The translations under genes and the position numbers were made by a program. Under the pieces are notes generated by a model. The model saw only the letters and a list, made by a program, of their open reading frames with translations. It was not told the origin of the DNA and ran no database searches. This document shows, piece by piece, positions 1,796 through 21,418 of a stretch of 64,000 nucleotides of DNA. The stretch spans positions 1 through 64,000 of the IMG/VR virus record IMGVR_UViG_2657245113_000004. One strand, 5' to 3'. Numbering within the stretch: the first letter of the stretch is position 1; every line of letters begins with the position of its first letter. This DNA comes from an uncultured virus (IMG/VR IMGVR_UViG_2657245113_000004). Lineage: Duplodnaviria; Heunggongvirae; Uroviricota; Caudoviricetes.

Positions 1796-2039
1796 GAATA
1801 ATTCTCTCTATTAACGATGAACTTGTACTGGAGGATGTTTTAAGTATTTCTTTTGCCAGCCGATAACTTTTAGGCTGAATATAAATCGCGCCTGGCTGTA
1901 CACGATACTCGCGCCCATGTTTTTCAGGTGCCGGGTAAATATTGCCGCCTCGCGCCCAGCGCTGGAGTGTCTGGGGGGTTGGTTGCTTGCTGCGGTAGGT
2001 TTCTTCCGCCCATTCTTCTAATGTCAGTAGTTTGGTCAT
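1770..2039 (-). CDS. xis: Excisionase
   Basis: LLTLEEWA..TLQRWARGGNIYPAPEKHGREYRV matches lambda-type Xis; overlaps the int start. Confidence 0.9.
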   Translation of the reverse strand: MTKLLTLEEWAEETYRSKQPTPQTLQRWARGGNIYPAPEKHGREYRVQPGAIYIQPKSYRLAKEILKTSSSTSSSLIERIIHGKEAKKV

Positions 2040-2159
2040 TGGTCTTTCCTCAGTAGGAAAGGGCGCAAAGATGTTACGCCCTATTATGGTCGTTTGGTCT
2101 AGAGTGGTAAGGGGCTATGTTTTAGTGATACTGCTATCGAATGCTACGGTCGGATATGG

Positions 2160-2588
2160 TTAAACCTCCCGAATTAACCGGTTGATAATGTCTCTTTTGG
2201 AGGGAATGCGAAGCTGGTAGGCCAATTGCCATGCTTTGCGCTGATTCTGAGTTTTATGTTCCAACATTTTGCGGATAGTGGTCACCGGGATACCGGTACT
2301 GCTGGCAATCAAATTTTCATTGTGGCCAGCGCGGTAAAACTGATAGATAGCCAGCAAAACTTCCAATGAGTAGCGCTTACGAATACCGATATCGACCGTA
2401 TTCACCTGAGATAAGCCACGCCATTGCTCATTACCGGGATAAATTGGTTTTGGCATCGGTCGATAGGGATTACCACTGCGGATCTCTGCGCGACAGCGCA
2501 TTAGCCAGATGATACGAGCGGTATAGTCCCCCCGGTCATCTTCTTTAAAGTAGTTGCCGGTACTCTGGTTCAGTTCCTCATCCATCAT
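2160..2588 (-). CDS. Hypothetical phage protein with C-terminal HTH-like segment
   Basis: Start probably at ATGA overlapping the upstream stop (2588); LIASSTGIPVTTIRKML looks like an HTH. Confidence 0.6.
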   Translation of the reverse strand: MMDEELNQSTGNYFKEDDRGDYTARIIWLMRCRAEIRSGNPYRPMPKPIYPGNEQWRGLSQVNTVDIGIRKRYSLEVLLAIYQFYRAGHNENLIASSTGIPVTTIRKMLEHKTQNQRKAWQLAYQLRIPSKRDIINRLIREV

Positions 2589-3724
2589 GCGGCTTCCTTC
2601 TGTTTCTGCTCTAATTCCCACTCTTTTACGATTCGGGTGCATTGAGCATGTACCTGGCGGGCGCTGGCGATCCCAAAGCCTTTGACGGCATTAGCCAACA
2701 TATCCGGGGTTCGACGGACAACATCAAATAACGAATGGATCCCAGAGCGGGCCAGCAGCTCTAAATGCTGCTCTTTCAACGGTAGGGTTTCGGTCAGCAC
2801 GGTTCCTGCCCACTCAGCCCGCTTAACTAAGTGTGGGTGAGTAGGCTCAAGCAGATCTCGAATACGCTGGGTAACCGCTGGGGTCAGGCCATCCGGCCAG
2901 TTCTGTTTGAAATCATCAACCATGGGATAGACGGGTAATGCCCACTCATTGACCGAGACGATCAGGCCAATGCCGCTGGTGGAGCGAATTTCAATATGCC
3001 AGTCAATATCGTTAATGAGCTGCATATCGTAATCACCTGAGCGTAGTTTCAGCCCCCACTGGAAGGTATAAAAGTAAAATTCAGTGCCATCATTGCCACG
3101 ATAGTAGGTTGGCTCGACGTCACCATCCATACGCTGGATCCGGTTGGTGAGGTCAGAAACGGCATTATTCAATTGGTCATTAACATTGACCATGACAGCC
3201 AGTTTGCTGGTTTTTTCTGCCACCTCTTTTTTGTATCGCCGGATCTCTGTTAGTTGCTGGTTTAACAACGTACGCTTGCTCTCCAAATCATCTTTGAGGC
3301 GAACGATCTGGATTTTCATTTTTTCAGGATTCAGTGACTTCAACCGATTCACCTCAGTAGCCAACACGCGTTGGTCTGAAAGTGAAAGATTGTATTTGGC
3401 TGAAATACTGTCTCGCTGCGCATTGGCTTCAGCGACTAACAGGTCTGCATTTTCTATGCGTTCCTGCACTTGTGTTAACGCCAAGGATTTCGTGGTTAGG
3501 TCGTTTTCAGTTTTTTCTAAACGGTCGAATAAAAGGTTGTACTCGTCAGTCTCGATGTTGAGTTGTTCAATACATAGGGACTGTGCTTGGTTGAGTAAAA
3601 CAGTCGCGCTCTCTATAGAGCGCTGTGCGGTGCCGGTAGTCTGCTCAATGGCAAGGTCTAACTGCGCCCGAACTGGACGCAGAGATGACTCCAGCACACT
3701 GGCAGTTGTGGCCTGTGTGGTCAT
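2585..3724 (-). CDS. Coiled-coil protein with C-terminal HhH / RNAP alpha-CTD-like domain
   Basis: Long heptad region; C-terminal LPLKEQHLELLARSGIHSLFDVVRRTPDMLANAVKGFG. Confidence 0.6.
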   Translation of the reverse strand: MTTQATTASVLESSLRPVRAQLDLAIEQTTGTAQRSIESATVLLNQAQSLCIEQLNIETDEYNLLFDRLEKTENDLTTKSLALTQVQERIENADLLVAEANAQRDSISAKYNLSLSDQRVLATEVNRLKSLNPEKMKIQIVRLKDDLESKRTLLNQQLTEIRRYKKEVAEKTSKLAVMVNVNDQLNNAVSDLTNRIQRMDGDVEPTYYRGNDGTEFYFYTFQWGLKLRSGDYDMQLINDIDWHIEIRSTSGIGLIVSVNEWALPVYPMVDDFKQNWPDGLTPAVTQRIRDLLEPTHPHLVKRAEWAGTVLTETLPLKEQHLELLARSGIHSLFDVVRRTPDMLANAVKGFGIASARQVHAQCTRIVKEWELEQKQKEAA

Positions 3725-3768
3725 GATGGGTTACCTGTGGAATGCCTGCCGTGGCAGGTTATGAAAGG

Positions 3769-5373
3769 TTACTGCGTGATAGAGAAATAGCGGATCCGGC
3801 CAGCTTTTACCGCGTTGTACAGGCGGTTAACTGTTTCAGTAGTAAGCTCAATTCCTGCCGCCACTAAATCAGTATCAATTTGGGCAATCCAATTAGCTGG
3901 CTTGTCTGTTAGTGGCGTATTTACCGATCCGCCCAGTTGTTTAGGGAAGTTAACCGATCCCGCAGGGTGTAACGACTGATGGACTGTTGCATCCGTACTT
4001 GCGGTGACTGTTTCTGTAGTGGACACTGGCACTGCCTGTTGTTGTTTTTTCAATTCATCAAGCCGCAATGCTTCCTGCTGTCTGTGCTGTTCCTCAATCT
4101 GTTTTTGCCTGGTAATGCGTTGATCAATCATCAGCGCCAGATGTTCGTGCTCAAGGGCAATTATCTGGTTGATGTCAGCGAACAGATTTTTATAAGCCGG
4201 TTCAATATCAGCAAATAGCACTAAGTTGGACTGATATTTCTCACCTAATTGGTTAGCAGCTATCTTGGCGCGTGCCAGTTCATCGTTGGCTGCACTCTGC
4301 AAAGAGGTGAGGGTTTTCTTGCCTTTGATAGCAGTGGCAAAATCAGCCGGGATAGTAGGTAGAGTGACAATAGCCAACTGTTTATTGATACTGGCAATGT
4401 GCTCAGCAAGAGCGGCTTTTACCTTATTCAGTATTTCAAGGCGAATAGCTTCTTTGCGCAACTTAACGAGTTTTGACAGGTCTAGCCGTTTGTTTCGCAT
4501 TTCATCGCGCAAGGTATCAATGGTGCGGAAAAGTAGATCAATCTGCTCAGTCTTAGACAGTGCCTGTTGTTTAATCAGATCCAGCTCTTTCTCTGCTTTT
4601 TCACAGAACTTAACGGTTTCTTCTGCGTCAGCGAAGTCCTGATCGGTCACCAGATTAGTGTTGATGGATTGAATAAAAGCCAACGCTTGATTCTGGTAAA
4701 CAGTCAGGTTTGATTCTTTTACCGCGCCCTCTATCTCCACCAATAGGGCAGGGAGGCGCATTAAGGCTTTACCTTGCGGTATGTCTTTTATCTCAGGGGC
4801 TGTGTAACCGTTCAAATCCTGTTCAAATTGCTGCCAACCCGCCATCAAAGCTTCACGGCGACCAGGTACCGGTAAATACTCCATCCACACAAAGTTATCC
4901 TCAGTGCCATCTGATACCACAAAAATGACCTTTTCGGACTCACTCACTAAAAGTTGCTGTTCTAACTGCCAGTAATACTCTGGCGGCAAGTCTTTATTTT
5001 TCACCGCCAGCGACAGTGTGGCATTCCACATTTTGTGTTCAAACAACACATCTTCCATCATGGTCATGCCATCAAAGGAAGCCAACAAATAGCCATCATC
5101 ATCGATGGCGGTTGCAGGGAATAATTCGGTACCGATCATAGATTCTACGATGACCCGCGCGGTGGCTTCTTGCGCGTGGCCTTTATCGAACAAGTTGGTT
5201 TGTACCCAATCGCTGATTTCCCGTTCCGAGCCGGTGGCCTTCATGTTCAGCAATTCATCGCGGCGCATTTTACTGGAGGCTGCCATCATTACCGGGGCTT
5301 CGCTGGCAGTGAAATGGCGACTGCGTAAGGCGTGCCATTCTGGCGTGCCTTGCTGGACATTAATGATTTGCAT
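3769..5373 (-). CDS. YqaJ / lambda-exonuclease family protein with coiled-coil extension
   Basis: QGTPEWHALR, TASEA, ASFDG, EHK and YYWQLEQQL motifs; adjacent to bet. Confidence 0.9.
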   Translation of the reverse strand: MQIINVQQGTPEWHALRSRHFTASEAPVMMAASSKMRRDELLNMKATGSEREISDWVQTNLFDKGHAQEATARVIVESMIGTELFPATAIDDDGYLLASFDGMTMMEDVLFEHKMWNATLSLAVKNKDLPPEYYWQLEQQLLVSESEKVIFVVSDGTEDNFVWMEYLPVPGRREALMAGWQQFEQDLNGYTAPEIKDIPQGKALMRLPALLVEIEGAVKESNLTVYQNQALAFIQSINTNLVTDQDFADAEETVKFCEKAEKELDLIKQQALSKTEQIDLLFRTIDTLRDEMRNKRLDLSKLVKLRKEAIRLEILNKVKAALAEHIASINKQLAIVTLPTIPADFATAIKGKKTLTSLQSAANDELARAKIAANQLGEKYQSNLVLFADIEPAYKNLFADINQIIALEHEHLALMIDQRITRQKQIEEQHRQQEALRLDELKKQQQAVPVSTTETVTASTDATVHQSLHPAGSVNFPKQLGGSVNTPLTDKPANWIAQIDTDLVAAGIELTTETVNRLYNAVKAGRIRYFSITQ

Positions 5374-7159
5374 CTTCTGCCTCCAGATATTCGATAGTTT
5401 TGATTTGTGCCGAGGTGAGGGTGTATTTACTTTCGATGGTGTTGATGATTTGCGCGGCAGTTTTCTTGCCCTTGTTGATCAGCGTTGTCCAGTCAGCAAG
5501 TGCGCGTTGAAATTGTTCCGCGCTATATTCTGGTAGTGCCTGCGGCTGGCTTGGTTGCTGGCTGCCTTGGCTGTGTTCCTTACCTTCATTCACATCAAGA
5601 CTTTTACCTTCCATTTCCTCTGCTGTTGGCTGCTGACCAATTTCCGGCCAACCTTTACGCAGTGCCTGGGCTTCGGCGCAATTACCGCAGAGCATAGATA
5701 ACCCGTGGCGACGCACAACAATGACACCTGATGGTACTGTTACGCACCATACTTTGCCGGAGGTGTTTTGAGTTATGACTAATGATGATGAGTTTTTACT
5801 GAGGCCTTTCACTACTGGTGAAGTGGTTGTTTCAGAAAGAGTGAATAATGAGCACGAGCCAATATCGCTTTTTTGTACGGAAGGGCTACTTATTGAATAA
5901 CCAGCTTGAATGGCTAATAACTCAAATGCAGATATGACATTGGTATTTCGTTGATGTAAGCGGCGTACAGAGCCATTGTGAGATCCATCAAATTCTAAAA
6001 GGGAATCAACAACAATTTTTGCCTGCCGAGATGATAATGATAAAATCCATTCAGGATGAACACGCTTATCGGCCGTCATATATTTTGACACTAAGCTAAA
6101 ATCATACGTAAAACTCTTCTTATCCCTGATGGTTTTAATGATTCTTTTGCCGGTCACAGCCTCTCTGCCTGAGTCTTTTTTTACTGATACTTTGCTATGC
6201 AATCCCAAAGAAAATAAAGCTTCTATTTTATAGAGCCTAGATACGGAAACCCTGATTTGATGGTATCCAGAGTGGTAGCCATCGGCTAATAGGTACCCAA
6301 CCAAGTATAAAAGTTGATCACTAATATTCGAATCAGGACGATTTGAAACAACAGATCTCGGAATTGCCCACTTAGAACTATCTGTCGTAGCTTTTTGGTA
6401 TAGTGTTGCTGCCTCTACTTTTCCGTTGTTCGTTAACATATCGTGATTTGGTGTTACGCTAAAATTCAAGCGACTACCATTCGCTGTTACCATTGAGCCG
6501 CTATAAGGCTGCACAAATGGAATTGCAGAGGATGATTCCAAACCATTAGTTGTTACTTGTAATATTTTCCCTGTTACTTTAGAAAATAGCTGAAACCCTT
6601 CATCAGTGAGTATTTCAGTTTCATCATCAAAGCATTTGGCGAGTTGCCCATAGGGCCGTTTTTTCCACATGGCATTGGGTGCCTGAGTATCGCGGCCCGC
6701 GGTGGCATAGTTCTCCAGCCAATATTCCTTCGCACTGAACTCCACGATAGTGCCGTTAGGCATGAGTTTGCTCAGGGTGTATTTGCACCACTGAGGGAAA
6801 GTAATTTCTACTCCGTTAAAAGTTTGTGTGAGGTCAGGGCCAAATTCGGGTTCCTGTGCACCGGCATAGTTACCAGAGCGGTCTGCCTGTATGCGATAGA
6901 GCCCAACACCGGGCATCACCACATCACGCATTTCATATTTACCACTTACCGCATCTTTCACGCTCATAGGAACTAAATGAACGGGTTTCATCAGCGGATC
7001 TAACTGGCGGGCGCGGCAATAACTCACCGCCATGATGACTGAATCATCTTTAGCGCCAGGGTAAATACTGTTTTTCAGCGCGTTCCACGTTGGTTCGTCA
7101 ATATTCAACCCAACCACGGCGGGCGGGAGATTACTGGTTGTTACTGCTTGGGTGGTCAT
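5360..7159 (-). CDS. bet: Phage recombinase Bet (single-strand annealing protein), intein-containing
   Basis: YCRARQLDPLMKPVHLVP, YRIQADRSG and the conserved MWKKRPYGQLAK/CAEAQALRK motif split by a 318-aa insert. Confidence 0.92.
   Translation of the reverse strand: MTTQAVTTSNLPPAVVGLNIDEPTWNALKNSIYPGAKDDSVIMAVSYCRARQLDPLMKPVHLVPMSVKDAVSGKYEMRDVVMPGVGLYRIQADRSGNYAGAQEPEFGPDLTQTFNGVEITFPQWCKYTLSKLMPNGTIVEFSAKEYWLENYATAGRDTQAPNAMWKKRPYGQLAKCFDDETEILTDEGFQLFSKVTGKILQVTTNGLESSSAIPFVQPYSGSMVTANGSRLNFSVTPNHDMLTNNGKVEAATLYQKATTDSSKWAIPRSVVSNRPDSNISDQLLYLVGYLLADGYHSGYHQIRVSVSRLYKIEALFSLGLHSKVSVKKDSGREAVTGKRIIKTIRDKKSFTYDFSLVSKYMTADKRVHPEWILSLSSRQAKIVVDSLLEFDGSHNGSVRRLHQRNTNVISAFELLAIQAGYSISSPSVQKSDIGSCSLFTLSETTTSPVVKGLSKNSSSLVITQNTSGKVWCVTVPSGVIVVRRHGLSMLCGNCAEAQALRKGWPEIGQQPTAEEMEGKSLDVNEGKEHSQGSQQPSQPQALPEYSAEQFQRALADWTTLINKGKKTAAQIINTIESKYTLTSAQIKTIEYLEAEDANH
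5681..6634 (-). mobile_element. Intein with LAGLIDADG homing endonuclease
   Basis: Block A CFDDETEILT, block B VTPNHDML, LAGLIDADG-like LVGYLLADG and VDSLLEFDG, block F/G VWCVTVPSG..CGN followed by extein Cys+1; visibly AT-richer than the exteins. Confidence 0.92.
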
Positions 7160-7169
7160 TGGTCAGCCC

Positions 7170-7319
7170 TCAGATTTTGACAGCGATAGCCAGAAACATG
7201 AACGCGCCTAAAACACAGGCGAAGAAGAATTTCAGGCCAGATTGTTTGGGATATAGGTTGAAGTCGTCGCCGGTAACGCGGTGGCGGTATTGGAGTTTCT
7301 TGATGAATTCAGTAGTCAT
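7170..7319 (-). CDS. Small 49-aa membrane protein (below ORF-track cutoff)
   Basis: MTTEFIKKLQYRHRVTGDDFNLYPKQSGLKFFFACVLGAFMFLAIAVKI; stop abuts the bet RBS. Confidence 0.6.
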   Translation of the reverse strand: MTTEFIKKLQYRHRVTGDDFNLYPKQSGLKFFFACVLGAFMFLAIAVKI

Positions 7320-7487
7320 GGTATGCTTTCCCATGGTTGGGTTTGGTCACTCAACCACGCTGATAATAATCCTCGTGGTTATTGTTCAGTCCTCAGTAGG
7401 TTTGCGGTTGGTCCCGCACTCCTGGGATAGCCCCGGCTTAATCGCTGGGGCTTTTCTCTTTTAGGATATGGATAAGTAAGAAAAGGT

Positions 7488-8138
7488 ATGAAAAGACAAC
7501 TTGTAGTTTTATTAGCATCAATTCTTAGTATTCCATCAGCATTTGCTGTAGATATTCCAGCCATGGAAAAGGTAATGCGTGAAAGCATGCAGAACCCGAA
7601 AACAGTGGAATATCGGTCAATCACTGAAGTAACCAACTCTACCGGCGAAACGTTTGTTTGTGGTGAGTTCCGTATTACAGGGGAAAATAGTCAAGAGGCT
7701 GATTTCATTCCCTTTGCTTATACTCAACACAAAACTATCTACGTGAGTTCAGATCTTTCTAAGAATGAGAAAAGTGAGTATCGTCTGACTGGATGTGAAG
7801 GCAAAGAATCAGAGGCATCTTGGTATAAGACTCTAACGATATTAGATACAAACTGCCTTGCCGGTTTTCAAACACTAAAAGCTTATTTCAGTGAAGGAAA
7901 ATCAGACGAGCTTGCTATCGCCGCAGGCGTTAGCGTTTGGGATGATTTCAATAAAAAAATAGGAAAATCTGCTGATGCTGAATTTAATAAATCGGCTTAT
8001 TACTATTTAAGATCGATATTGAATCAGGCTAAGGCTAACCCAGAAATGGGGGCTGAGATTAAAGCAGATCCAATAGCAACAAAGAATGAATTCCTTGCTA
8101 ATTGCAGAGCAATTTTTATTGAAAAGGCTATCAAATAA
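7488..8138 (+). CDS. Exported protein, AT-rich moron (possible superinfection exclusion)
   Basis: Sec signal peptide ending AFA; opposite strand to the early-left operon. Confidence 0.65.
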   Translation: MKRQLVVLLASILSIPSAFAVDIPAMEKVMRESMQNPKTVEYRSITEVTNSTGETFVCGEFRITGENSQEADFIPFAYTQHKTIYVSSDLSKNEKSEYRLTGCEGKESEASWYKTLTILDTNCLAGFQTLKAYFSEGKSDELAIAAGVSVWDDFNKKIGKSADAEFNKSAYYYLRSILNQAKANPEMGAEIKADPIATKNEFLANCRAIFIEKAIK

Positions 8139-8156
8139 TTATCGCGATTATTATTC

Positions 8157-8495: not shown

Positions 8496-8546
8496 GGTAA
8501 GGAGTGTTGCCGAAGCCCCTGCGAACAGAGGCAGCGGTTAAGCCAC

Positions 8547-8816: not shown

Positions 8817-8899
8817 ATTGGTTCCTTTTAGGTAAAAAAAAGAGCCACAGCCTAAGCTGTAGCTCCGATGGTTTATTTTGCTTTCCTGCTAATTAATGC

Positions 8900-9145
8900 T
8901 TAACGCACCCCGCGAGGTAACTTACTGCAACCACGCATCTTCTGGCGGGCAACTGCTGCAATCCGTTTCTCTGGATCTGCTGAAGTTCTGGGCTTGCTGG
9001 GTACGGCTGGCATATCTGGCATCGGTTTGCACCGCACCAAAACTAATACTGCTTTTTCAACTCGGTTACTTTCACGCTTTGCCAGTGCCTGGATATGGGC
9101 ATTGCGTTTTTTTGCCATACGCTTTTGACGAGATGTTGTGGCCAT
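8900..9145 (-). CDS. N-like antitermination protein
   Basis: Basic Arg-rich N-terminus (SRQKRMAKKR) and NRVEKAV; lies downstream of pL and boxA. Confidence 0.6.
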   Translation of the reverse strand: MATTSRQKRMAKKRNAHIQALAKRESNRVEKAVLVLVRCKPMPDMPAVPSKPRTSADPEKRIAAVARQKMRGCSKLPRGVR

Positions 9146-9236
9146 TGGTCAGTCCTCAGTTGGTTTATGCCGGGATATTTATCCACGCCCGGCGCGTGCT
9201 ATCCTTGCTGTCACCACAACAAGTAAGGATTTTTGT

Positions 9237-9659: not shown

Positions 9660-9811
9660 GTAAACACCGTTATCAGTGATCTTATACCTACCTCCTCACA
9701 CTGACAGAGGCAGGGTAAGTCCACTTCATGATTTTTTCCTCAATTGTGGGTGATTCGTGGTTTAGCTGAGCCGTGACCGGTACACGCGGACCGTTTGATG
9801 TCACTTAACCG

Positions 9812-9826: not shown

Positions 9827-9865
9827 TACCCATTGTTTCGGGTGGTGGTTCTGTTCTTGAATCTA

Positions 9866-11408: not shown

Positions 11409-11654
11409 ATGAAACTATATGAAATTTTGAAAACTGAAATTGGCAGCAATGCGGAAATTGGCCGCCGCTTTCCTGCAAAAGGTAAGCCACGAACCGGGCA
11501 AGCTGTTGGTAAGTGGCGTTCACAAGGTGTGCCTGAAGATATTGCCCTGTTGTGCCATTTATCTTCCTGCATCCCATACACCTATAACCCGGCCGACTAT
11601 GGCCGTAACCCGGAAAATCTCAGTCTGGTTCTGACCAAACCAGCTCATCAGTAA
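11409..11654 (+). CDS. cro: Cro-like regulator
   Basis: Divergent from cI; GAGGAGG RBS; HTH-like SNAEIGRRF..TGQAVGKW..GVP. Confidence 0.75.
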   Translation: MKLYEILKTEIGSNAEIGRRFPAKGKPRTGQAVGKWRSQGVPEDIALLCHLSSCIPYTYNPADYGRNPENLSLVLTKPAHQ

Positions 11655-11671
11655 AGATAGAGGACTGACCA

Positions 11672-11923
11672 ATGACTATTAGCCCAAAGCGTTGGCTCGC
11701 TAGCTGGAGAGCTAAACGTAAAACACAAAAAACTGCTACTCCTCTTTGCCCCCTCTCAATAAACGCAAATGAGGGGAAGAGTGTGACTTTTCAGGATCTG
11801 GATCTTCTTGGCTTATGCGTGCTGAAAGGAAAACCTCAGTGCTTGAACCATCCAGAAGGGCAGCAAAGTGAGCAAATAATTCCTGACCCTCAGGTGAAAT
11901 CTCCAATGTCGGATGATTCATGA
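11672..11923 (+). CDS. Hypothetical protein (overlaps an antisense ORF)
   Basis: Has the GAGGACTGACCAATG initiation motif; its 3' part overlaps 11736-12041. Confidence 0.35.
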   Translation: MTISPKRWLASWRAKRKTQKTATPLCPLSINANEGKSVTFQDLDLLGLCVLKGKPQCLNHPEGQQSEQIIPDPQVKSPMSDDS

Positions 11924-12041
11924 TTGCATCCAGACTTTGCTTGATGCGGAGCTTATGTTGTTCATCACTACCGGATAGCACGGTAATGGCGACAACATCG
12001 ACCAAGGCTCTAATGTAACTAAGGGAATTATCACTGGACAT
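11736..12041 (-). CDS. Hypothetical moron protein
   Basis: GGAGG RBS before MSSDNSLSYIRALVDVV; ends HLRLLRGGKEE. Confidence 0.6.
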   Translation of the reverse strand: MSSDNSLSYIRALVDVVAITVLSGSDEQHKLRIKQSLDAIMNHPTLEISPEGQELFAHFAALLDGSSTEVFLSARISQEDPDPEKSHSSPHLRLLRGGKEE

Positions 12042-12126
12042 TGCGCCTCCATGGCGGACTAAAAAAGAAGCGATTAACAGTTTATGTCCATGCGTGTAAT
12101 CACCCAAGATATTTAAGGACTGACCA

Positions 12127-12489
12127 ATGACCACAATTTATCAACCTGCCGCTATAACGGCAGGGGCTACGATAGCCTCTGACGTCCGGCGGGAGTTGCT
12201 ATCCCGGAAAAAGGTGGGAAAGAACGGTTTACCGTTCCATACCGTGCGTGAAGATCAGATTAAGACCAGGTGGACAGAAAGCGAGGCAGTGGCCATAAAA
12301 AGCACCGCCAATGCGCTGGATTCAAACCCCGCAGTAGAAACCAATGTGGCCGCAATTCGTGGTTTTTTGGCGATGTTTGCTGAAGCTCCAGAAATGCTGG
12401 CTCACGTCCATGCCGAATTAAAACTCGCCGGGCTGCCAGTACCTGAATGGCTGCCTGATCTTCCAATCAGCCAGGAGAAATCCCAATGA
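12127..12489 (+). CDS. Putative regulator in the cII position
   Basis: Position between cro and the replication genes; ribbon-helix-helix-like QIKTRWTESEAVAIK. Confidence 0.5.
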   Translation: MTTIYQPAAITAGATIASDVRRELLSRKKVGKNGLPFHTVREDQIKTRWTESEAVAIKSTANALDSNPAVETNVAAIRGFLAMFAEAPEMLAHVHAELKLAGLPVPEWLPDLPISQEKSQ

Positions 12490-13519: not shown

Positions 13520-14295
13520 GTATGCAGGGTTTAGATGATAAACGTGAATTTGCAGAAATCATGAAAGCCACGCTGGCGATATACGGCAAAGATGCATCAA
13601 AAGCCGTGCTGGAACTCTATTGGAATGCGTTGCTGCCCAACGATATCGACACAGTGCGCAAGGCATTCAGTAACTGGCTGACCGATCCGGATCAGGGCCG
13701 TTTCTCGCCAAAGCCTGCCGATATTATCCGCAATATTCAACATATTGCCGGTAAGCCCGATTGGCTTTCAGCCAATGAGGCGTGGGCATTGGCATTACCG
13801 GCGCAAGATGAGGCTAACACCGTGGTCTGGACACATGAAATTGCCCAGGCATGGAATATTGCTCAGCCCATTATGCGGGAAGGTGACAAGGTCGGTGCGC
13901 GAATGGCTTTCATTGCTGCCTATGAGCGATTGACTAAGGCAGCACAGGGAACAGGCCGAGAGCCTGAGTGGTCAGTGTCGGAAGGATGGGACAAAGAAAC
14001 GGTAAAACGCACGGTGGAACAGGCGGTGACTACCGGACTTCTGCCCAAACCTAAAGCTGAGAAATATCAGTTGTTGCTACCAGGCAAAACCCAGTTAGAC
14101 GAAGGCGTACCCACAAAAATACGTCATTTTTTAGACGAGTTGAAAGACAAAATTAAACAGGATCAGGAGGAAAGGGCAAGAAGATGGCGCGATGAAAGCA
14201 TCAAGCTACAAGAGTCTCTGGACAGTAAATACCGAGAGTCATTGCAGCAGACCGCCGACCACGGTTTGCATAATAATCAAATTACTGAGGACTGA
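13516..14295 (+). CDS. Helicase loader / P-like replication protein
   Basis: Follows O; YWNAL, FSPKPADII, SANEAW and ARMAFIAAYER motifs. Confidence 0.7.
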   Translation: MSMQGLDDKREFAEIMKATLAIYGKDASKAVLELYWNALLPNDIDTVRKAFSNWLTDPDQGRFSPKPADIIRNIQHIAGKPDWLSANEAWALALPAQDEANTVVWTHEIAQAWNIAQPIMREGDKVGARMAFIAAYERLTKAAQGTGREPEWSVSEGWDKETVKRTVEQAVTTGLLPKPKAEKYQLLLPGKTQLDEGVPTKIRHFLDELKDKIKQDQEERARRWRDESIKLQESLDSKYRESLQQTADHGLHNNQITED

Positions 14296-14298
14296 CCA

Positions 14299-15435
14299 AT
14301 GAGCATTAATTTCAAGAACGTGTTGATTTACAAACTATCCCGCGATGTCTCTTTCGCTGATTTGGAACAGCAAATGGCGCAGTTCGCATTCACACCCTGT
14401 GGTAGCCAGGATATGGCGAAAACCGGTTGGATATCGCCCATGGGTAACGAAAGCGCCACGCTAGCGCATGTGGCTAACCAACAAATCCTGATCACATTGC
14501 AGTGTGAAAAAAAGGATTTACCTGCGCCGGTTATCGCCCGTGAGCTGGCGAGTAAAGTTGAGCGTTTGGAGCAAGAGCAACACCGTAAACTGAAAAAAAC
14601 AGAAAAAGACTCGCTGAAAGATGAAGTTATCCAGACTCTGCTGCCACGGGCCTTTAGCAAATACTCTACAACATCCATCTGGATTAACGCAGGGGCTGGG
14701 TTAATCATCATTGATGCCGCCAGTGCGCGGAAAGCTGAAAATGCATTGGCATTGCTGCGCAAAACTATGGGTTCTCTGCCTGTGGTTCCTCTGACACTCA
14801 ATACCCCGATTGAACTGACGCTGACCGAATGGTTGCGTTCAGGTGCTGCGCCTGCTGGTTTTGTGCTTCAGGAAGAAGCCGAGTTAAAAGCCGTTTTGGA
14901 GCAGGGCGGTATTCTGCGCAGTAAGCATCAGGATTTAGTCAGCGATGAGATCCGCGGTCATATCGCCGCCGGTAAGCTGGTTACCAAGTTGGCTTTGGAG
15001 TGGCGGGAACGTATTAGTTTCATGTTGTCCGACGATGGCAGCCTGAAGAGAGTGAAATACAGTGCCACGCTTCTGGAGCAAAACGACGATATTGATCGTG
15101 AGGATTATGCCCAGCGATTTGATGCCGATTTCATTCTGATGACGGGTGAATTAGCTGCCTTAATTGCAGATTTGGTTACCGCATTAGGCGGAGAGGCAAC
15201 CAGCAGTTCATGGGTCGATTTGGACGGCGTAGAGCGAGACGATGATGATCGCTATCCCGAGGCAGTGAAGTTCATCAAGACGAGAGGTAAAGCCTCAATC
15301 TCTGGGCTACAGCGTGAACTCCGCATTGGCTATAACCGAGCCGCCTGGCTGCTGGAAAGAATGCAGGCGGAAGGCATTGTGTCACAACCCACGCCAGACG
15401 GAACCCGCCAAGTGCTGCTCGGGGAGGGTGCGTAA
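14299..15435 (+). CDS. rdgC: RdgC fused to a C-terminal FtsK gamma domain
   Basis: [32 protein letters not shown]; tail [31 protein letters not shown]. Confidence 0.92.
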
Positions 15436-15782
15436 TGGTGATCAAGCCACAGGTACCCAACGCCGAAAGGGATGGCATTAACCACGATATCAGGTCGATG
15501 CGTCTGGCTGGCCGGTTAAACGAGGCCAACAGCCAGCTAAATCGGGTGATCGCCGCTGCCAGTGGGGCTGACTGGCGAACCCTGCGCGATCTCGAAAAAT
15601 TATTATCCCAGATGTTCCCCGGTGAAGGTGATACCCAGACCGCCATAAGCGCACGCCTGCGTGAGATCAATCCTGTCCGTCATGGGCTGGTGAAACAGGT
15701 CAGAACTGTCCGCAATGAGGATAGCGGTAAGCGTGTTTGGTTTTATCGCCTGGTTCCTACCACGCAAGGAGGCATGCAATGA
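15435..15782 (+). CDS. Hypothetical protein, winged-helix-like
   Basis: WRTLRDLE..TQTAISARLRE..WFYRL. Confidence 0.65.
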   Translation: MVIKPQVPNAERDGINHDIRSMRLAGRLNEANSQLNRVIAAASGADWRTLRDLEKLLSQMFPGEGDTQTAISARLREINPVRHGLVKQVRTVRNEDSGKRVWFYRLVPTTQGGMQ

Positions 15783-16705
15783 GTTACCAGATTTTTATCG
15801 GTGATTGCATAGACTCAATGCGCAAAATGGCAGATCAATCCGTTCATAGCTGCATTACCAGCCCGCCGTATTATGGGCTGCGTGATTATGGTGTTGAAGG
15901 GCAGATTGGTTTAGAGGAAAGCCCAGCGGCGTTTATTCAACGGCTTGTCGCGGTGTTTCGTGAGGTTCGCCGTGTTCTTCGTGATGATGGCACTTTATGG
16001 GTAAACATGGGGGATAGTTGGGGCAAAGGGAAGCAATTGAATGGTATGCCATGGCGTTTTGCCTTTGCGTTACAAAATGACGGCTGGATCCTTCGCCAAG
16101 ACATTATCTGGCACAAATCCAATCCTATGCCAGAAAGCGTGCGTGACCGCTGTACCAAGGCCCACGAATATATATTTCTGTTGAGTAAGTCGAAAAGCTA
16201 TTACTTCGATCATGAGGCAATTAGAGAACCATCTGTCTACAGCGGTAAAAATACCGGCGTCGGCTTTGGGCATGGCATGGATAAGAGTGACAGAAATCGC
16301 GGCAGGATATCTGCCCGCGATAACTTCAAGCGGGAAGACAGTAAGCGAGCGGTAGTTATACCGGGGCAAAATGTGGGTACTCATCGTGCTGATCGTAAAG
16401 ATACCGTCTCAGATGGTATGCGGGCAAAACGCAACGTTTGGACTGTGGCCACTCGGGGCTACAAAGAAGCCCATTTTGCTACTTTCCCGCCAGCACTAAT
16501 AGAGCCTTGTGTTTTAGCTGGTTGTCCGGCAGGTGGTGTGGTTCTTGATCCATTCGGTGGGAGTGGTACCACTGCTGGCGTCGCTATCGGCAGTGGTCGT
16601 AAAGCTATTCTTTGTGAATTGAACCCAGCGTACGCTGATTTGGTTCCTACTCGTATTGAAAGTATTTTATCTGCGTACCCAATCAAGCCGGGGAATACAG
16701 CATGA
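15779..16705 (+). CDS. Beta-class N4C/N6A DNA methyltransferase
   Basis: ITSPPY catalytic motif precedes HFATFP and VLDPFGGSGTT; start ATG overlaps the upstream stop. Confidence 0.92.
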   Translation: MSYQIFIGDCIDSMRKMADQSVHSCITSPPYYGLRDYGVEGQIGLEESPAAFIQRLVAVFREVRRVLRDDGTLWVNMGDSWGKGKQLNGMPWRFAFALQNDGWILRQDIIWHKSNPMPESVRDRCTKAHEYIFLLSKSKSYYFDHEAIREPSVYSGKNTGVGFGHGMDKSDRNRGRISARDNFKREDSKRAVVIPGQNVGTHRADRKDTVSDGMRAKRNVWTVATRGYKEAHFATFPPALIEPCVLAGCPAGGVVLDPFGGSGTTAGVAIGSGRKAILCELNPAYADLVPTRIESILSAYPIKPGNTA

Positions 16706-18249
16706 GATATGGATCAGTGTGCAGTGGTATTGAAGCCGCAAGCCTTGCGTGGGAGCCCTTGGGCTGGACGCCCATATGGTTTAGTGAAATCGAACCATTC
16801 CCATCAGCAGTTCTGGCACATCGCTGGCCAACAGTAACCAACCTTGGTGACATGACTAAGATTGCCGAGTTGGTCCGAGCCGGAAGTGTGGAAGCCCCAG
16901 ATATTCTGGTAGGCGGCACTCCTTGTCAGGCGTTCAGCGTTGCTGGCCTGCGTAATGGTCTGGCAGATGCCCGTGGCCAGTTAACTCTTTCATATGTGGA
17001 ATTAGCAGATGCAATCGACGACACGCGCCGCGAACGTGGCGAAAAAGAATCCATCATCGTCTGGGAAAACGTGCCGGGCGTCCTCAGCAGCAAAGACAAC
17101 GCATTCGGGTGTTTCCTTGCAGCACTTGCCGGAGAAGATGAGCCACTTGTCCCATCAGGGAAAAAATGGACGAACGCTGGTTATGTGTCTGGACCCAAAA
17201 GAGCAATCGCATGGATCATCAAAGACGCCCAATATTTCGGAGTGGCCCAACAACGCCGTCGGGTCCTGCTTATCGCAAGTGCTCGAAATGACCTTAATCC
17301 CGCAAAAGTACTATTTGAGCTTGAAAGCTACTCAGGGTCGGTATCGCCGGATCTTATTAGGAGCAAACGCTGCACCACAACTATTGATGGAAGCTCTCTG
17401 TATCGTTTCCGAAGAACAGACAGCTATATAGCCGACGGTTTAAGTAGCACCTTATCTGCAAGAGATTATAAAGATGCCCGAGATTTGGTTGTTACAGGAG
17501 ATGGCCGAGTAAGAAAGCTTCTTCCGGTTGAGTATGAAAGGCTTAATGGATTTTCTGATAACCATACTTTAATTAATTATAAGGGCAAGTTGGTTACAGA
17601 TGCTCCTCGATATAAAGCAATTGGTAATTCAATGGCTGTCAACGTCATGCACTGGCTAGGTCAGCGGATTGCAGATGTGTTACCGCCACTGCTTTACGAT
17701 GTTATTTATGCCGATCCGCCTTGGCAGTATGGAAGTAAGCCAAATAGAGGGGTTCTGCTGGATTACTCAACAATGTCAGTTGCAGAACTATGCGGCATGC
17801 AGGTTAAAAGCATCGCCAGCCAAAATGCTGCGCTGTTCATGTGGGTAACGGGCGCCATGGTGTCGGAGGCACTAACTGTCGGTGCTGCTTGGGGTTTTAA
17901 ATTCATCCGTATTGATAAGGTATGGGAAAAGAAGAAACACACTGGAAGTCGGCACGGTGTTGTGGGGCCATGGGGAATGAATGACGCTGAATTTTTACTG
18001 TTGTTCACGCGGGGTAAAGTCTGCGGCAACCAAACAGAGCGCAACCAGTACACCGTCTATGAAGAGAAATATACTGGTATCCATTCTGGTAAGCCTCATT
18101 TCTTTCGTGAACAGATCGAGCGCCGATTCAAAAATGCTCGTCGTATAGAACTATTTGCGCGCACTTCATCGCCCGGCTGGGACGTTTGGGGTGATCAGGC
18201 ACCAAATGCCGCCAGACTATCCCTCATAGAGCCGGAGGATACTTTATGA
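16702..18249 (+). CDS. C5 cytosine methyltransferase fused to an MT-A70-family adenine methyltransferase
   Basis: GSVCSGIEA, GGTPCQ, WENVPG, AIGNSM; then IYADPPWQY, LFMWV, HSGKP, IELFAR, GWDVWGDQ. Confidence 0.9.
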   Translation: MRYGSVCSGIEAASLAWEPLGWTPIWFSEIEPFPSAVLAHRWPTVTNLGDMTKIAELVRAGSVEAPDILVGGTPCQAFSVAGLRNGLADARGQLTLSYVELADAIDDTRRERGEKESIIVWENVPGVLSSKDNAFGCFLAALAGEDEPLVPSGKKWTNAGYVSGPKRAIAWIIKDAQYFGVAQQRRRVLLIASARNDLNPAKVLFELESYSGSVSPDLIRSKRCTTTIDGSSLYRFRRTDSYIADGLSSTLSARDYKDARDLVVTGDGRVRKLLPVEYERLNGFSDNHTLINYKGKLVTDAPRYKAIGNSMAVNVMHWLGQRIADVLPPLLYDVIYADPPWQYGSKPNRGVLLDYSTMSVAELCGMQVKSIASQNAALFMWVTGAMVSEALTVGAAWGFKFIRIDKVWEKKKHTGSRHGVVGPWGMNDAEFLLLFTRGKVCGNQTERNQYTVYEEKYTGIHSGKPHFFREQIERRFKNARRIELFARTSSPGWDVWGDQAPNAARLSLIEPEDTL

Positions 18250-18893
18250 CAACAGCACCGCGAACTAAGTCCCCGAGAAAGAAAAAGACTGAGGTGCTGG
18301 GCGTCCTGTTGCCTGGTGGTGGAATCAAGTATGCCACTGATCATGATCGCGAAACGATGAAAGGGGTGCCTGTGGGCACTCCAATTTCAATGAGTCCAAT
18401 TGGCGACCGGCGCAACCTGAAGCATCACCGTAAATTCTGGAAATTGCTGGAATTGGGTTTCTCTTATTGGGTGCCGGATTGGACCTTTGTCAGTGCGCCA
18501 GAGGAATGGATCGCCCATGAGGTGGCTAAAGCCGTGGGCAGTGCCGCAGGAGATCCAGAGCTTTATGAAAAGGTGACCAAATCCATCGCGCAAGCGGTAT
18601 TAGACCGAGTAATCAGGCAGCGCCAGAAAAGGTTTGATGGGGAGGCGGTAAAGACGGATATGGCTTATTTCAACCACGTTATGATCAAAGCCGGGTTCTA
18701 TGACCTGATGCCAAATCCTGAAGGTGGCACATTGAAGCAGCGTTGGAGTATCGCGTTTGTGAATATGGATCAGGGGGCTTTTGACCGGATTTATCAAGGC
18801 GTGGCCGGTGTTATCTGGAATGAGACATTAGGCCAGCACTTTGATAACGAGTATAAAATGGAACAGGCAGTTAACCGGCTGCTGGAGTATTGA
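18246..18893 (+). CDS. DUF1367-like nin-region protein
   Basis: RNLKHHRKFWKLLELGFSYW and SIAFVNMDQ. Confidence 0.75.
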   Translation: MTTAPRTKSPRKKKTEVLGVLLPGGGIKYATDHDRETMKGVPVGTPISMSPIGDRRNLKHHRKFWKLLELGFSYWVPDWTFVSAPEEWIAHEVAKAVGSAAGDPELYEKVTKSIAQAVLDRVIRQRQKRFDGEAVKTDMAYFNHVMIKAGFYDLMPNPEGGTLKQRWSIAFVNMDQGAFDRIYQGVAGVIWNETLGQHFDNEYKMEQAVNRLLEY

Positions 18894-18894
18894 T

Positions 18895-19224
18895 ATGAAA
18901 TCTCCGGCATTTAGAAGTAAAGCCCTGCGCGATTCTGCGCGGGGCCAATGCTGCACGCTCCAGATCCCCGGTATCTGTAACAGCAATCCAGAAACAACGG
19001 TACTGTGCCATTTGCCCAGTTCCACCCACGGCATGGGGTATAAGTCAGATGACTACTGGGCCGTTTTTGGGTGCAACTGCTGCCATGATGTTATTGATGG
19101 ACGGCTGCCATATGAATGGCAGCCCGGAGAGCGTGAGGAAACGATATTACAGGCATTGCATGCAACTCTTAGGATTTGGCTGGAGGAATCTCTGGTAACC
19201 GCTAAAGGGGGCCTGTTTGCTTAA
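18895..19224 (+). CDS. YbcO / DUF1364 putative nuclease
   Basis: LRDSARGQCCTLQIPGICNSNPETTVLCH, CNCCHDVIDGR. Confidence 0.85.
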   Translation: MKSPAFRSKALRDSARGQCCTLQIPGICNSNPETTVLCHLPSSTHGMGYKSDDYWAVFGCNCCHDVIDGRLPYEWQPGEREETILQALHATLRIWLEESLVTAKGGLFA

Positions 19225-19672
19225 TAGCATAGATGCCATTGGCATTATCGGAACAGCAGCAAAGCTGGAAGTGCGTAACGGGAAAGTTCGTAAAGTTAAC
19301 CACCAGGCGGAAACTGAGGAACAGGCCGCGCTTATTGCGTGGGCAGATAAAACTGTTATCAATGGTATTTGTATCGGGGACTATCTGATCCATATACCCA
19401 ACGAGGGAAAGCGTGGGCCAAAGGCGGCAAGGGATGCTAAGCGACTTGGGTTGAGGAAAGGCGTGCCAGATTTGTTTCTGGCGCTGCCGCGTGGCGGCTA
19501 TGCGGGGTTGTGGATAGAGATGAAGGTAAAGTCCCGATTAACATCTGCTGAGCAGTTTTGCTGGCTGAGAAAGCTGGATAATGTTGGTTACGTTGCAACT
19601 ACTTGTTTTTCTTTTGGTCAGGCTAAAGATACAGTAGTAAAATACCTTAACAAAAACAACATAACAGGATGA
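19217..19672 (+). CDS. VRR-NUC domain nuclease
   Basis: HIPNEG, GVPDLFL, LWIEMK, Q..W. Confidence 0.88.
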   Translation: MLNSIDAIGIIGTAAKLEVRNGKVRKVNHQAETEEQAALIAWADKTVINGICIGDYLIHIPNEGKRGPKAARDAKRLGLRKGVPDLFLALPRGGYAGLWIEMKVKSRLTSAEQFCWLRKLDNVGYVATTCFSFGQAKDTVVKYLNKNNITG

Positions 19673-19678
19673 TGCGCT

Positions 19679-20524
19679 ATGTTTTATCATGTTCACATAG
19701 AGTCAGCGGATAAAAATACCAAAGGAGGAGTTAAGCGTAACTTTGAGTATGATTTTAATTCAGAGGAAATGGTTATTGATAATATATTAATACCATATTT
19801 GACTGGAGATACCTTTCAGTTTGATGGGTATTTTTTAGATAAAGGAAGAGTTAATAGAATAAAAATAGTAGAAACGGAAAATACAGCTACTCAAGAAAAA
19901 GACTCAAGAGTTAATAGAATGAAATTAGCTGGTGGTATGATTGTATCATCGGCAAAATCTTCAGTAATTTTTGGTGATTCCACACGGAAAGATATCAGTA
20001 GGGAATTATTAGAGAAAGCAAGAAGCAAGTGTTCAGATATTAAACCTCAAGAAATCGACGTGAAACATAAGGTTTCTGATAAAAATAAAGTGTTTATAGT
20101 GCATGGACAAGATGATTTAGCAAGGCTTGAAGTATCTTCATTTCTAAGCAAATTAGGTCTTGAGCCGATAGTTTTGCATGAACAAGCAAGCTCTGGTAGT
20201 ACCATAATTGAGAAAATTGAGAAGTATACTGATGTTGGATTTGGTGTGGTGCTTTATACACCATGTGATACTGGAGCTAAACAAACAGTTGAACCAGAAT
20301 ATAGACCAAGAGCTAGACAGAATGTGGTATTTGAACATGGGTATTTAATTGGCAAGTTATCCAGAAAGAATGTTTGTGCGCTGGTTAAAGGAGATGTTGA
20401 AACTCCTAACGATATTAGTGGTGTTGTTTATGTACCTCAAGACGCCGCAGGTGCTTGGAAGTTAATGCTAGCTAAAGAATTAAAAAGCTCGGGCTACGAT
20501 ATAGATATGAACAAAGCGCTTTAG
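19679..20524 (+). CDS. TIR-like (predicted nucleotide-binding) domain protein
   Basis: VFIVHGQD, LHEQ, TIIEKIE, LYTPCD, RARQNVVFEHG, PNDISGVVY; AT-rich insert. Confidence 0.88.
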   Translation: MFYHVHIESADKNTKGGVKRNFEYDFNSEEMVIDNILIPYLTGDTFQFDGYFLDKGRVNRIKIVETENTATQEKDSRVNRMKLAGGMIVSSAKSSVIFGDSTRKDISRELLEKARSKCSDIKPQEIDVKHKVSDKNKVFIVHGQDDLARLEVSSFLSKLGLEPIVLHEQASSGSTIIEKIEKYTDVGFGVVLYTPCDTGAKQTVEPEYRPRARQNVVFEHGYLIGKLSRKNVCALVKGDVETPNDISGVVYVPQDAAGAWKLMLAKELKSSGYDIDMNKAL

Positions 20525-20611
20525 TATTTCATAAATTGCAATAATTAAACTTGAATTGCATTATATGGGATAGTGTTTATCATTGGTTTAGACTCAAAAG
20601 GGGACTGACCA

Positions 20612-21418
20612 ATGACCACTGCTATTGAACAACTTATCAAAATGCACGATCCGCGCTGTGTCAGCATAGAATCACTGAACATTGGCAGAGGTCGTGCCGT
20701 TCTGACCAAAGACCAGATACTAGGGGCTTTTGCTACCTGCCAGCATAGTCACCCCGTCGGATTCGATATATTAATGACCAAATACCGCAATGACTACCAA
20801 GCTGAACGACGCTTACGGGCCGCAATTAGTGTGTGGTTGCATAAGCGACCGCATCCCGGGCGTGCCATTGCTGCCTGTCAGTTGGCGCTGAATATGGTAT
20901 TGGATAGAAACCTTCCGGCGCAGGTAGAGCAAATTGCAACTTTGCTGCGGCGTTACGGATCCCGTACCGGTATCACCAGAAAAGTCGTTGATGGGCTACA
21001 GCAGCAAATCAAATTACTGGAAAGAGATAAAGTCCAGGCACTTGATGATGGCGCTATTGAATTACTGGCAAATGAAATAAATACCCTTCAGTCTAAAATC
21101 AAAACAGAACGCGGAGCACTCCGGGTATGGGCCAATCATCAGGCGGCGATAACGCAAGTCTGCCCCCGTTGTCACGGTGCCGGTAAAACCCTGCGTCCTC
21201 ATCCAGAAACATGCAACGAATGCGGTGGTGGTGGACGTATACCGCCAACAATGGAACATCTGCGCAAATCCATGGGCATCATAGGGGCTGAGATACCCGC
21301 CGGGGAGTGGGCTGCGCAATATGTGCCGCTGGTGAAGGAATGCATGCACTGGTTGTACGTTGAAGAAAGCGACGCGTCTCAGACCTTATCTGAATTAACT
21401 AAAAATGAAATGGTTTGA
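20612..21418 (+). CDS. Late antiterminator Q-like protein
   Basis: CPRCHGAG..CNECGGGG zinc finger; lies between the nin region and pR'/lysis genes. Confidence 0.8.
   Translation: MTTAIEQLIKMHDPRCVSIESLNIGRGRAVLTKDQILGAFATCQHSHPVGFDILMTKYRNDYQAERRLRAAISVWLHKRPHPGRAIAACQLALNMVLDRNLPAQVEQIATLLRRYGSRTGITRKVVDGLQQQIKLLERDKVQALDDGAIELLANEINTLQSKIKTERGALRVWANHQAAITQVCPRCHGAGKTLRPHPETCNECGGGGRIPPTMEHLRKSMGIIGAEIPAGEWAAQYVPLVKECMHWLYVEESDASQTLSELTKNEMV

Follow-up and report, generated by a model that had tools for sequence, protein, structure and literature searches.

The sequence analyzed here, positions 1 to 64,000 of the IMG/VR provirus record IMGVR_UViG_2657245113_000004 (69,321 bases in all) and hereafter called the window, is a lambdoid provirus of a Yersinia-type host in which a 13-nt motif, GGACTGACCAATG, is repeated at the starts of early genes and has its reverse complement in the late leader. 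According to Pfam and PHROG scans of the proteins encoded in the window, its leftward genes comprise an integrase, an excisionase, a RecE-like gene, RecT, a KTSC gene, an 81-aa arginine-rich N-like gene and an S24/HTH repressor, and its rightward genes a cro-like gene, an O-like replication gene, RdgC fused to an FtsK-gamma domain, two DNA methyltransferases, NinB, YbcO, VRR-NUC, a TIR-domain protein and a Q-like antiterminator, which is followed by holin, lysozyme, Rz, terminase and P22-type portal genes. The 81-aa gene is considered N-like from its position and its N-terminal sequence, family scans having given no match. The nearest named genome is that of Yersinia similis, with an RdgC identity of 95%, and comparison of the early region with phage records gave matches confined to two short stretches.

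A pattern search of the window located five exact copies of the motif at the coordinates and on the strands claimed by an earlier examination of these letters without database searches (the sequence-only reading), and all five terminate in the ATG of an open reading frame (ORF). None of 100 dinucleotide-preserving shuffles contained any exact copy, and the chance estimate that accompanied the original claim, about 0.002 occurrences per 128 kb, is arithmetically correct. Sites with up to two mismatches number nine, against a shuffle mean of 1.29 (largest 5); besides the exact copies they comprise the three variants already named at 7157-7169, 2037-2049 and 7380-7392, all of which were recovered, and an extra one at 21891-21903 on the minus strand. 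The same search found nothing past 21903 in the window, and the reported lack of copies at late structural gene starts hence holds at this threshold. The copies of the early region are the following.

9143-9155, minus strand: exact copy, at the ATG of the 81-aa gene (9145 to 8900, leftward) with an arginine-rich N-terminus, N-like
11662-11674, plus strand: exact copy, 7 nt past the stop codon of the cro-like gene, at the left end of a 455-bp cassette
12117-12129, plus strand: exact copy, at the start of a conserved 120-aa gene, the head of the block 120aa-59aa-O-like-259aa
14289-14301, plus strand: exact copy, at the start of the RdgC and FtsK-gamma gene, the head of an eight-gene overlapping block
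20602-20614, plus strand: exact copy, at the start of the Q-like antiterminator gene
7157-7169, minus strand: one-mismatch copy GGGCTGACCAATG, at the RecT start; the change, A3>G, would still pair with the leader as G-U
2037-2049, minus strand: two-mismatch copy GGAAAGACCAATG, at the excisionase start, the head of xis-int
7380-7392, minus strand: copy without ATG, GGACTGAACAATA, preceded by the hairpin GCGG-GACCAA-CCGC at 7404-7417

The reality of the 83-aa ORF that starts at the 11662-11674 copy is doubtful. Degenerate relatives of the motif were observed at the start of the KTSC gene (8816, minus strand), where AAGGAACCAATATG equals the motif minus CTG, and at that of the small terminase (TerS) gene (23452, plus strand), which reads CAGACCAATAGAAC.

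Anatomy of the motif and the gene blocks it heads

Aligned, the copies read (T/c)(G/A)A GGACTGACCA ATG ACC and can be parsed into a Shine-Dalgarno (SD) sequence, made up of GGA and the preceding purines (R-R-GGA), a fixed 7-nt spacer, CTGACCA, and the ATG itself. Of 36 downstream-flank clusters, 22 have ACC as the second codon and 32 a second codon beginning with A. The stop codon of the upstream gene often overlaps the motif, with a TGA abutting it at RecT (7170-7172) and the internal TGA of the motif serving as the stop at RdgC (14293-14295). Genes bearing the motif begin 3 to 203 nt after the previous stop codon, while the genes that follow them are separated by gaps of only -53 to +8 nt, yielding the coupled runs 120aa-59aa-O-259aa, RdgC to TIR, Q-DUF6979, RecT-RecE and xis-int; the N-like gene is also headed by the motif. 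The gap before it and the overlapping or abutting genes after it place the motif at the first cistron of every such run. The 13-mer is thus shown to be a start-associated translation-initiation element heading each coupled early-gene block.

An initiation element with a fixed spacer might owe its conservation to extended pairing with 16S rRNA beyond the SD. TAAGGA or TGAGGA does pair with the anti-SD and, if two bulges are allowed, TGA and CCAA would also face the tail, with a predicted energy of -12.7 kcal/mol. However, 22% of shuffled spacers do as well or better with the 30-nt tail of the Yersinia similis 16S rRNA, as do 52% of shuffled 13-mers with the whole 16S rRNA, and the genes of the host do without the motif. 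The additional pairs would moreover require the opening of helix 45, an established element of the ribosomal structure. Performing no better than shuffles, 16S rRNA pairing was rejected as an explanation, and we regard it as extremely unlikely.

Another alternative is that the motif is a portable initiation cassette acting only in cis, that is, an efficient re-initiation site without any trans partner that would have spread with gene modules and been kept by selection on expression, in which case the complement found in the late leader would serve some other purpose or be a relic. Because TGA-GGAC-TGA-CCAA-TGA supplies stops in all three frames with a 7-nt period, such a cassette would close any upstream ORF and restart the next gene. 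The stops lying inside or directly before the motif at RdgC and RecT are congruent with this explanation, as are the three nucleotides preceding the motif, which are mostly TGA, TAA or purine-rich, the predominance of A-initial second codons, which complete the third TGA, and the very position of motif genes at the heads of coupled blocks. What it does not account for becomes apparent when the motif is compared across genomes.

Conservation, phage specificity and exchange

Scanning IMG/VR with a 14-mer returned many single matches, at about the level estimated for chance in a collection of that size, together with provirus records holding several matches. All ten of the related IMG/VR proviruses hold four to six exact copies (49 in total), at partly different spacings and genes. 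Among named genomes the motif is present in Yersinia similis, Pectobacterium (2), Brenneria, Serratia quinivorans and a Symbiopectobacterium metagenome-assembled genome, where it stands at both orthologous and non-orthologous early genes and where, Y. similis excepted, RdgC is only 65-70% identical to that of the window. Alignments for four families (the 120-aa, RdgC, N-like and KTSC proteins, with 7-15 non-redundant representatives each) were anchored on protein N-termini and not on the motif; the major-base fraction in these alignments is 0.96-0.99 in the 10 nt before the ATG, as opposed to 0.50-0.62 at positions -45 to -14 and 0.70-0.90 in the first 30 coding nucleotides.

The Q gene behaves somewhat differently, since its copies keep the core GGACTGACCAA while the distance to the ATG shifts by 1-2 nt, which argues that the core sequence is being read, rather than its register with the start codon. 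The Q copy of the window has upstream of it a segment (20581-20591, plus strand) complementary to its 3' part, AUG included, and is predicted to be locked in a hairpin, with an unpaired probability of 0.00 at 7 of the 13 motif positions and a mean of 0.16. Unrelated upstream modules of Q relatives bear another complement, TCAGTCCTG, and a complement of at least 6 nt within 54 nt was found in 10 of 28 Q representatives, compared with 2 of 44 for four other gene families.

In five whole host genomes of 4.4-5.3 Mb each, all 22 exact matches fall in a single cluster per genome, spanning at most 22 kb and overlapping the prophage locus, and no exact copy lies outside it. The possibility that the motif might be equally common in host genes, which the sequence-only reading had singled out for checking, was thereby addressed and does not apply. 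Likewise, no copy on either strand was found at 22 loci of other phages or hosts in which the RdgC homologue has an ordinary start. Taken together, these results show that the motif is not a recent duplication and that it is under purifying selection in a lambdoid prophage lineage spread over at least five enterobacterial genera. Hence, the motif is very probably a selected, phage-specific, start-associated element.

The same comparisons bear on the cis-acting cassette. Efficient initiation does not need one single exact 10-nt sequence, kept across five genera beside noncoding bases with a conservation of only 50-62%, and a generally useful re-initiation site would hardly be never used by host genes and absent from related phages that have an ordinary SD at the same gene. 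The cassette is also at odds with the Q gene, where the distance to the ATG varies by 1-2 nt and the core stays unchanged. We consider it rather unlikely as the whole explanation.

Parts of the motif recur in predicted RNA structures of the early region. In the window, TGACCAA was counted 28 times, whereas 8.3 occurrences are expected (the maximum in 200 shuffles being 22). A hairpin at 11625-11643 (plus strand), at the 3' end of the cro-like gene, consists of the stem CTGGTT/AACCAG and the loop CTGACCA, which is the motif spacer, and is kept across genera despite being coding; it lies where the boxB of nutR would be expected, and is on that account a putative nut element. At the place corresponding to 7380-7417, the non-Yersinia relatives (L151-L155 and G005) carry the exact motif, then a mini-ORF of 6-8 codons (encoding MTIKIISS, MTIVISS, MTIKATG or MAKATS) and then another hairpin; Yersinia-type phages have ATA instead of the ATG. 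In G002, a hairpin flank of the 7404-7417 type stands directly before the N-like gene. The hairpin and motif at 7380-7417 may therefore constitute a nutL-type site or a leader-peptide device.

Such structures would be in keeping with a protein operator, in which a phage RNA-binding protein reads the motif on mRNA and represses or activates the whole set, the candidates being the N-like and the 120-aa proteins. Control of this kind would resemble that exerted by T4 RegA. The motif is strictly co-oriented with transcription, the loops of the hairpins at 11625-11643 and 7404-7417 share GACCA with it, TGACCAA is in excess, and the 120-aa gene, which has no family match, is present in all lineages seen. 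On the other hand, the motif copies have no flanking stem that could present a loop, the N-termini of N-like proteins fall into several unlike sequence types while the motif remains constant, and the Pfam and PHROG scans found no RNA-binding domain in the candidates. Two readers suggested beforehand fare poorly in this respect: the KTSC gene is itself of the target type and carries a variant motif, leaving KTSC unsupported as a reader, and the N-like protein is equally unsupported in that role, given that N-like proteins differ strongly between lineages in which the motif is unchanged. Since no stem flanks the copies, a reading of the motif by the N-like protein as a boxB loop is retained only within this protein-operator alternative, which as a whole seems improbable.

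The motif has also been involved in gene exchange, as illustrated by the following segment.

11672-12126: 455-bp cassette, bounded by a 15-bp direct repeat, GGACTGACCAATGAC, at 11662-11676 and 12117-12131

This segment is present in the window (G000) and in G003 and gone from G001 and G008, the break falling inside the motif-containing 15-bp repeat and both flanks matching. The motif is thus shown to have acted as a recombination joint in one clean event. Analysis of the flank clusters revealed single upstream flanks associated with different downstream genes, namely U0 with D0 and D6, and U5 with the N-like gene and the mini-ORF, although much of this flank variety may reflect plain divergence rather than exchange. 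The cassette also seems to carry a reverse ORF (11736-12134, minus strand), which has a good GGAGG site ahead of an internal ATG near 12043 and resembles a protein-coding gene more than the 83-aa forward ORF does; a family search with it gave no match.

If joining were the primary role of the motif, it would be kept as a linker for the in-register exchange of modules by RecE/RecT-type annealing, with its location at start codons being incidental. The clean 455-bp indel, the recurrence of one upstream flank with different downstream genes, the abrupt change of the Q and N-like upstream flanks into unrelated sequence right at the motif edge and the presence of RecE-like and RecT genes all fit such a role. 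RecET has been reported to recombine homologies of 5-13 bp (PMC2327257), and the boundary sequences of lambdoid phages have been proposed as mosaic joints (PMC3029335). Nevertheless, selection for future exchange is too weak to hold 13 nt invariant across genera, and a linker has no need for an SD and an ATG in fixed register or for avoiding late genes. Most differences between upstream flanks may, again, be plain divergence, and the lone reversed copy of the late leader is left unexplained, as in the capacity of a linker it would only promote inversions. We thus deem a linker very improbable as the primary function. The microhomology joint put forward in the sequence-only reading is borne out by one indel between two copies, but not as the reason for motif conservation; identical 13-15-bp sites at module heads would rather become joints as a by-product in a phage that encodes a RecE/RecT-type recombinase. 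A sequence held identical at many genes and genomes by direct regulatory selection is available as a joint, and one such event is documented here.

The late leader and its proposed targets

The ninth site of the window, the only one on the strand opposite to its neighboring genes, led to a newly recognized feature, a copy of the motif in reverse complement (the anti-motif) within the late leader, which occupies the interval separating the Q operon, ending at 21830, from the holin gene (21984). The leader comprises the following elements.

21819-21847, plus strand: PR'-like promoter, TTGACT-17 nt-TAAATT, a consensus match kept in relatives
21858-21894, plus strand: leader hairpin 1 and a U6AUU tract, with compensatory changes in relatives
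21891-21913, plus strand: anti-motif, TATTGGTCAGTTC and TGGTCAGTCC, the motif reverse complement in two tandem units
21927-21961, plus strand: tR'-like intrinsic terminator, with 11-nt arms and a TTCG loop, then TTTTTTATTT

Hairpin 1 and its U6AUU tract are possibly a first terminator. Structure prediction for the 109-nt leader RNA gives a z-score of -5.25 and a strong terminator hairpin, a result that describes the fold and not termination itself. Pairing of the motif with the anti-motif of the window would include two G-U pairs, one of which involves the G of the ATG. Leaders of the Yersinia type have two tandem units, whereas those of other genera have a single one, TATTGGTCAGTCC, which is the 13-nt complement with a single G-U pair. 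A complement of the core with at most one mismatch was identified in 43 of 46 Q-relative loci (Q identity 53-92%), 0.7-2.6 kb downstream of the Q start, and in these relatives the unit is conserved from the -35 element to the terminator, the sequence upstream of the -35 being unrelated. Across 24 distinct leaders both hairpins display compensatory changes and the loops and the following linker vary, while the anti-motif columns vary only from C to T, preserving G-U pairing. In leaders with one unit, the anti-motif sits in a linker of about 14 nt between the hairpins, essentially unpaired and after a U-rich tract (z-scores of -4.7 to -5.1). An unpaired seed placed after a U-rich tract and between hairpins is the usual build of a base-pairing small RNA (sRNA).

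The 13-bp duplex of motif and anti-motif has a predicted energy of -21.9 kcal/mol, and six motif genes are within the top 8 of 84 gene starts when these are ranked by the energy of their duplex with the leader. Some Q starts, reading GGACTGACCAATATG, provide a perfect 13-bp Watson-Crick match to the anti-motif. The anti-motif is lacking in three of the 46 Q-relative loci, and two of these (L185 and L186, a single lineage with a different late leader) have Q sites with 2-3 mismatches, while a Q site with two mismatches was seen in just one of the 43 loci that have the anti-motif; a site with two mismatches at the 120-aa gene is likewise found only in the L185/L186 lineage. The persistence of a partly degraded motif in a lineage without anti-motif is what a cassette acting only in cis would lead one to expect, but that explanation leaves unaccounted for the complement present in 43 of the 46 late leaders.

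We propose, as a tentative reading that falls only a little short of probable, that the late-leader RNA base-pairs with the initiation regions bearing the motif and that this pairing is what gives the motif its sequence-specific conservation. The proposal draws on the fact that PR'-tR' transcripts are constitutive in lambdoid phages and, in the Shiga toxin (Stx) phages described by Sy et al., act as a regulatory sRNA (PMC7547250). In the RNA initiated at PR', the exact complement would occupy an unpaired linker that adjoins a U-rich tract and a terminator hairpin; the carrier would be the short PR'-tR' species made without Q, the late mRNA leader made with Q, or both. Such an RNA would pair with the region from SD to AUG of every head gene (13 bp, -21.9 kcal/mol) and thereby block 30S binding, and translational coupling would then lower the expression of entire early blocks. 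Given that the N-like and Q genes both carry the site, the leader RNA could set a threshold against accidental lytic development. This threshold might act in lysogens and during early infection or, alternatively, early translation might be shut off once late transcription dominates; read-through of the terminators by Q could either relieve the brake or shut early translation. The notion of an RNA operator, which the sequence-only reading had raised, has in this manner acquired a concrete partner in the exact complement carried by the late-promoter leader; pairing and regulation are what we infer from it.

A more comprehensive form of this proposal, possible but doubtful at present, is that of a phage-wide antisense regulon, with one seed on an always-on late RNA and a 13-nt address on the head of each early module, including both antiterminators. 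By changing or removing the short form, Q read-through would create an RNA threshold with positive feedback, and the scheme would extend to the start-associated sequences of mycobacteriophages and the identical boundary sequences discussed below.

Several observations weigh against antisense regulation by the leader. Hairpin 1 and its U tract could, as modeled, end PR' transcripts before the anti-motif, in which case the only carriers would be read-through or Q-modified transcripts, and the predicted fold of Yersinia-type leaders draws part of the first unit into a second hairpin. The motif and the seed are identical in all of the 46 Q-relative and 36 RdgC-relative loci that have them; there is consequently no covariation at the level of the regulon, and their co-occurrence may be due to shared ancestry. 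Both seed variants are C>U changes that keep G-U pairing, but two such events prove nothing, and target variants comprise compatible as well as incompatible changes. Among the latter, GGACTCACC or GGACTAACC at the KTSC gene (GGACT[C/A]ACC) would cause central mispairing, as would GGACTAACC at some 120-aa and RdgC genes. Conservation of the second codon (ACC in 22 of 36 clusters) exceeds what a 13-nt seed explains, and constraints imposed by Q utilization could partly account for the high conservation of the whole leader. The ranking of duplex energies discriminates weakly, in that the starts of TerS and of a 54-aa gene, neither of which has the motif, rank among motif genes. The concurrent loss of the anti-motif and decay of the sites is a case of a single lineage, and in L195 the Q site is intact with no anti-motif within range. 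Finally, two RNA-library contig sets hold the leader (with 4 differences) inside contigs of 1.6 and 4.2 kb, which can neither show a small RNA nor exclude DNA. The leader was not found in a third RNA-library contig set, and one RNA-library contig ends in adapter sequence 6 nt into the 5' arm of the terminator.

A search with the 151-nt leader matched nothing in 5,426 E. coli genomes or among 50,697 phage records, and positions 1-24000 of the window gave no Rfam match at E<=1 other than SraC/SdsR. The 13-mer, its complement and their RNA forms occur in no paper of the searched literature, which consisted of the main texts of papers under a Creative Commons license; the matches to an 11-mer, among those listed, were unrelated primers.

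The Rfam matches to the SraC/RyeA and SdsR/RyeB sRNA genes (469-614, both strands; E values of 6e-39 and 7e-21) directly adjoin the prophage integrase (686-1795), and the prophage can accordingly be placed at the ryeA/ryeB locus; a host DUF2511 gene occupies positions 1-342. Other features of the window were recorded apart from the motif and the leader. The GGACU of the motif might conceivably relate to the phage MT-A70 methyltransferase, whose gene is located as follows.

16702-18249: MT-A70 methyltransferase gene

The TIR protein encoded in the nin region just before Q (19679-20524, plus strand; Pfam E value of 1.6e-37) is of the CAP12/Pycsar-effector type, and its gene may be defense or counter-defense cargo. 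The late region contains an ORF of 2,771 aa (46866-55181, plus strand), upstream of which the segment 44001-46000, with 32% G+C, harbors two ORFs of about 400 aa.

Comparison with known systems

The closest parallel to the motif is the start-associated sequence (SAS) of Cluster K mycobacteriophages, the function of which is given as unknown in the description by Pope et al. (2011, PMC3203893), which allowed for either an RNA or a protein as the factor recognizing it. As far as that description goes, both are 13-bp asymmetric repeats with many copies per genome, far above chance, that occupy the ribosome-binding position of ATG starts in different gene families, and SAS is conserved across subclusters. 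Neither occurs in the host genome or can be accounted for by 16S pairing, and both are confined to non-structural genes and keep to one orientation except for a lone reversed copy away from gene starts (21891-21913 in our case). In Anaya, the reversed SAS (L265, 34871-34883) follows a terminator-like hairpin within the 385 bp of noncoding sequence that separate gp96 from gp97. Because this copy sits in a noncoding gap, the forward transcript of Anaya would carry an anti-SAS, in a layout like that of the window.

The two elements nonetheless differ in several respects, judging from the same description of SAS. Their sequences (GGGATAGGAGCCC for SAS and GGACTGACCAATG here), host phyla and phage types are all unrelated, and the motif must hence be regarded as an analogue of SAS, and not as a homologue or member. 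SAS lies 3-7 bp before the start codon, whereas the motif includes the ATG, and about half of the SAS copies have an inverted-repeat extension (ESAS), of which none was seen in the window. Unlike for SAS, a specific complementary RNA within a promoter-terminator unit has been identified here as a candidate reader. The question of what reads SAS, which dates back to 2011, becomes testable in the present system, for which eight target sites and a candidate RNA partner with its promoter and terminator have been delineated.

Lambda 6S RNA is the leader RNA transcribed from PR' to tR'. Its counterpart in Stx phages is StxS, an Hfq-binding RNA reported to repress a phage mRNA through base pairing (Sy et al. 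2020, PMC7547250). According to that report, these RNAs are short transcripts of a constitutive late promoter that end at a nearby terminator in the absence of Q, and the late leader of the window resembles them in position only, as a predicted promoter-terminator unit between the Q region and the lysis genes. In contrast with such a shared position, there is no sequence similarity to StxS and no Rfam match. The targets differ as well, since those reported for StxS are one late phage transcript and the host rpoS, while the seed proposed here matches a repeated site on up to eight early genes, both antiterminators among them. Should the proposal be true, the late-leader RNA would gate the translation of both antiterminators, N-type as well as Q-type, together with that of the blocks for recombination, replication and excision, adding a further layer to the lambdoid switch.

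Control of the lysis-lysogeny decision by small phage RNAs that mask the SD or AUG of phage mRNAs is represented by sar of P22, c4 of P1/P7 and OOP of lambda. These RNAs address one or two sites, mostly as cis-antisense RNAs or within one operon, in contrast to the arrangement proposed here, where a single seed would reach, in trans, targets that are scattered over several operons and have the 13-mer in common. With one short address and one RNA, arbitrary gene sets could be controlled, which makes the arrangement a model for engineered circuits.

The last system to be compared, the boundary sequences proposed for module exchange in lambdoid phages (PMC3029335), has in common with the motif a short identical sequence at gene or module junctions; in the case of the motif, the end points of at least one indel fall inside it. 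The motif differs from the boundary sequences, in the form in which they are described there, by having an evident job in translation initiation and a complementary RNA partner, which would explain its lasting identity. If the proposed antisense regulation is true, the same design would also explain both the SAS of mycobacteriophages and the identity of boundary sequences.

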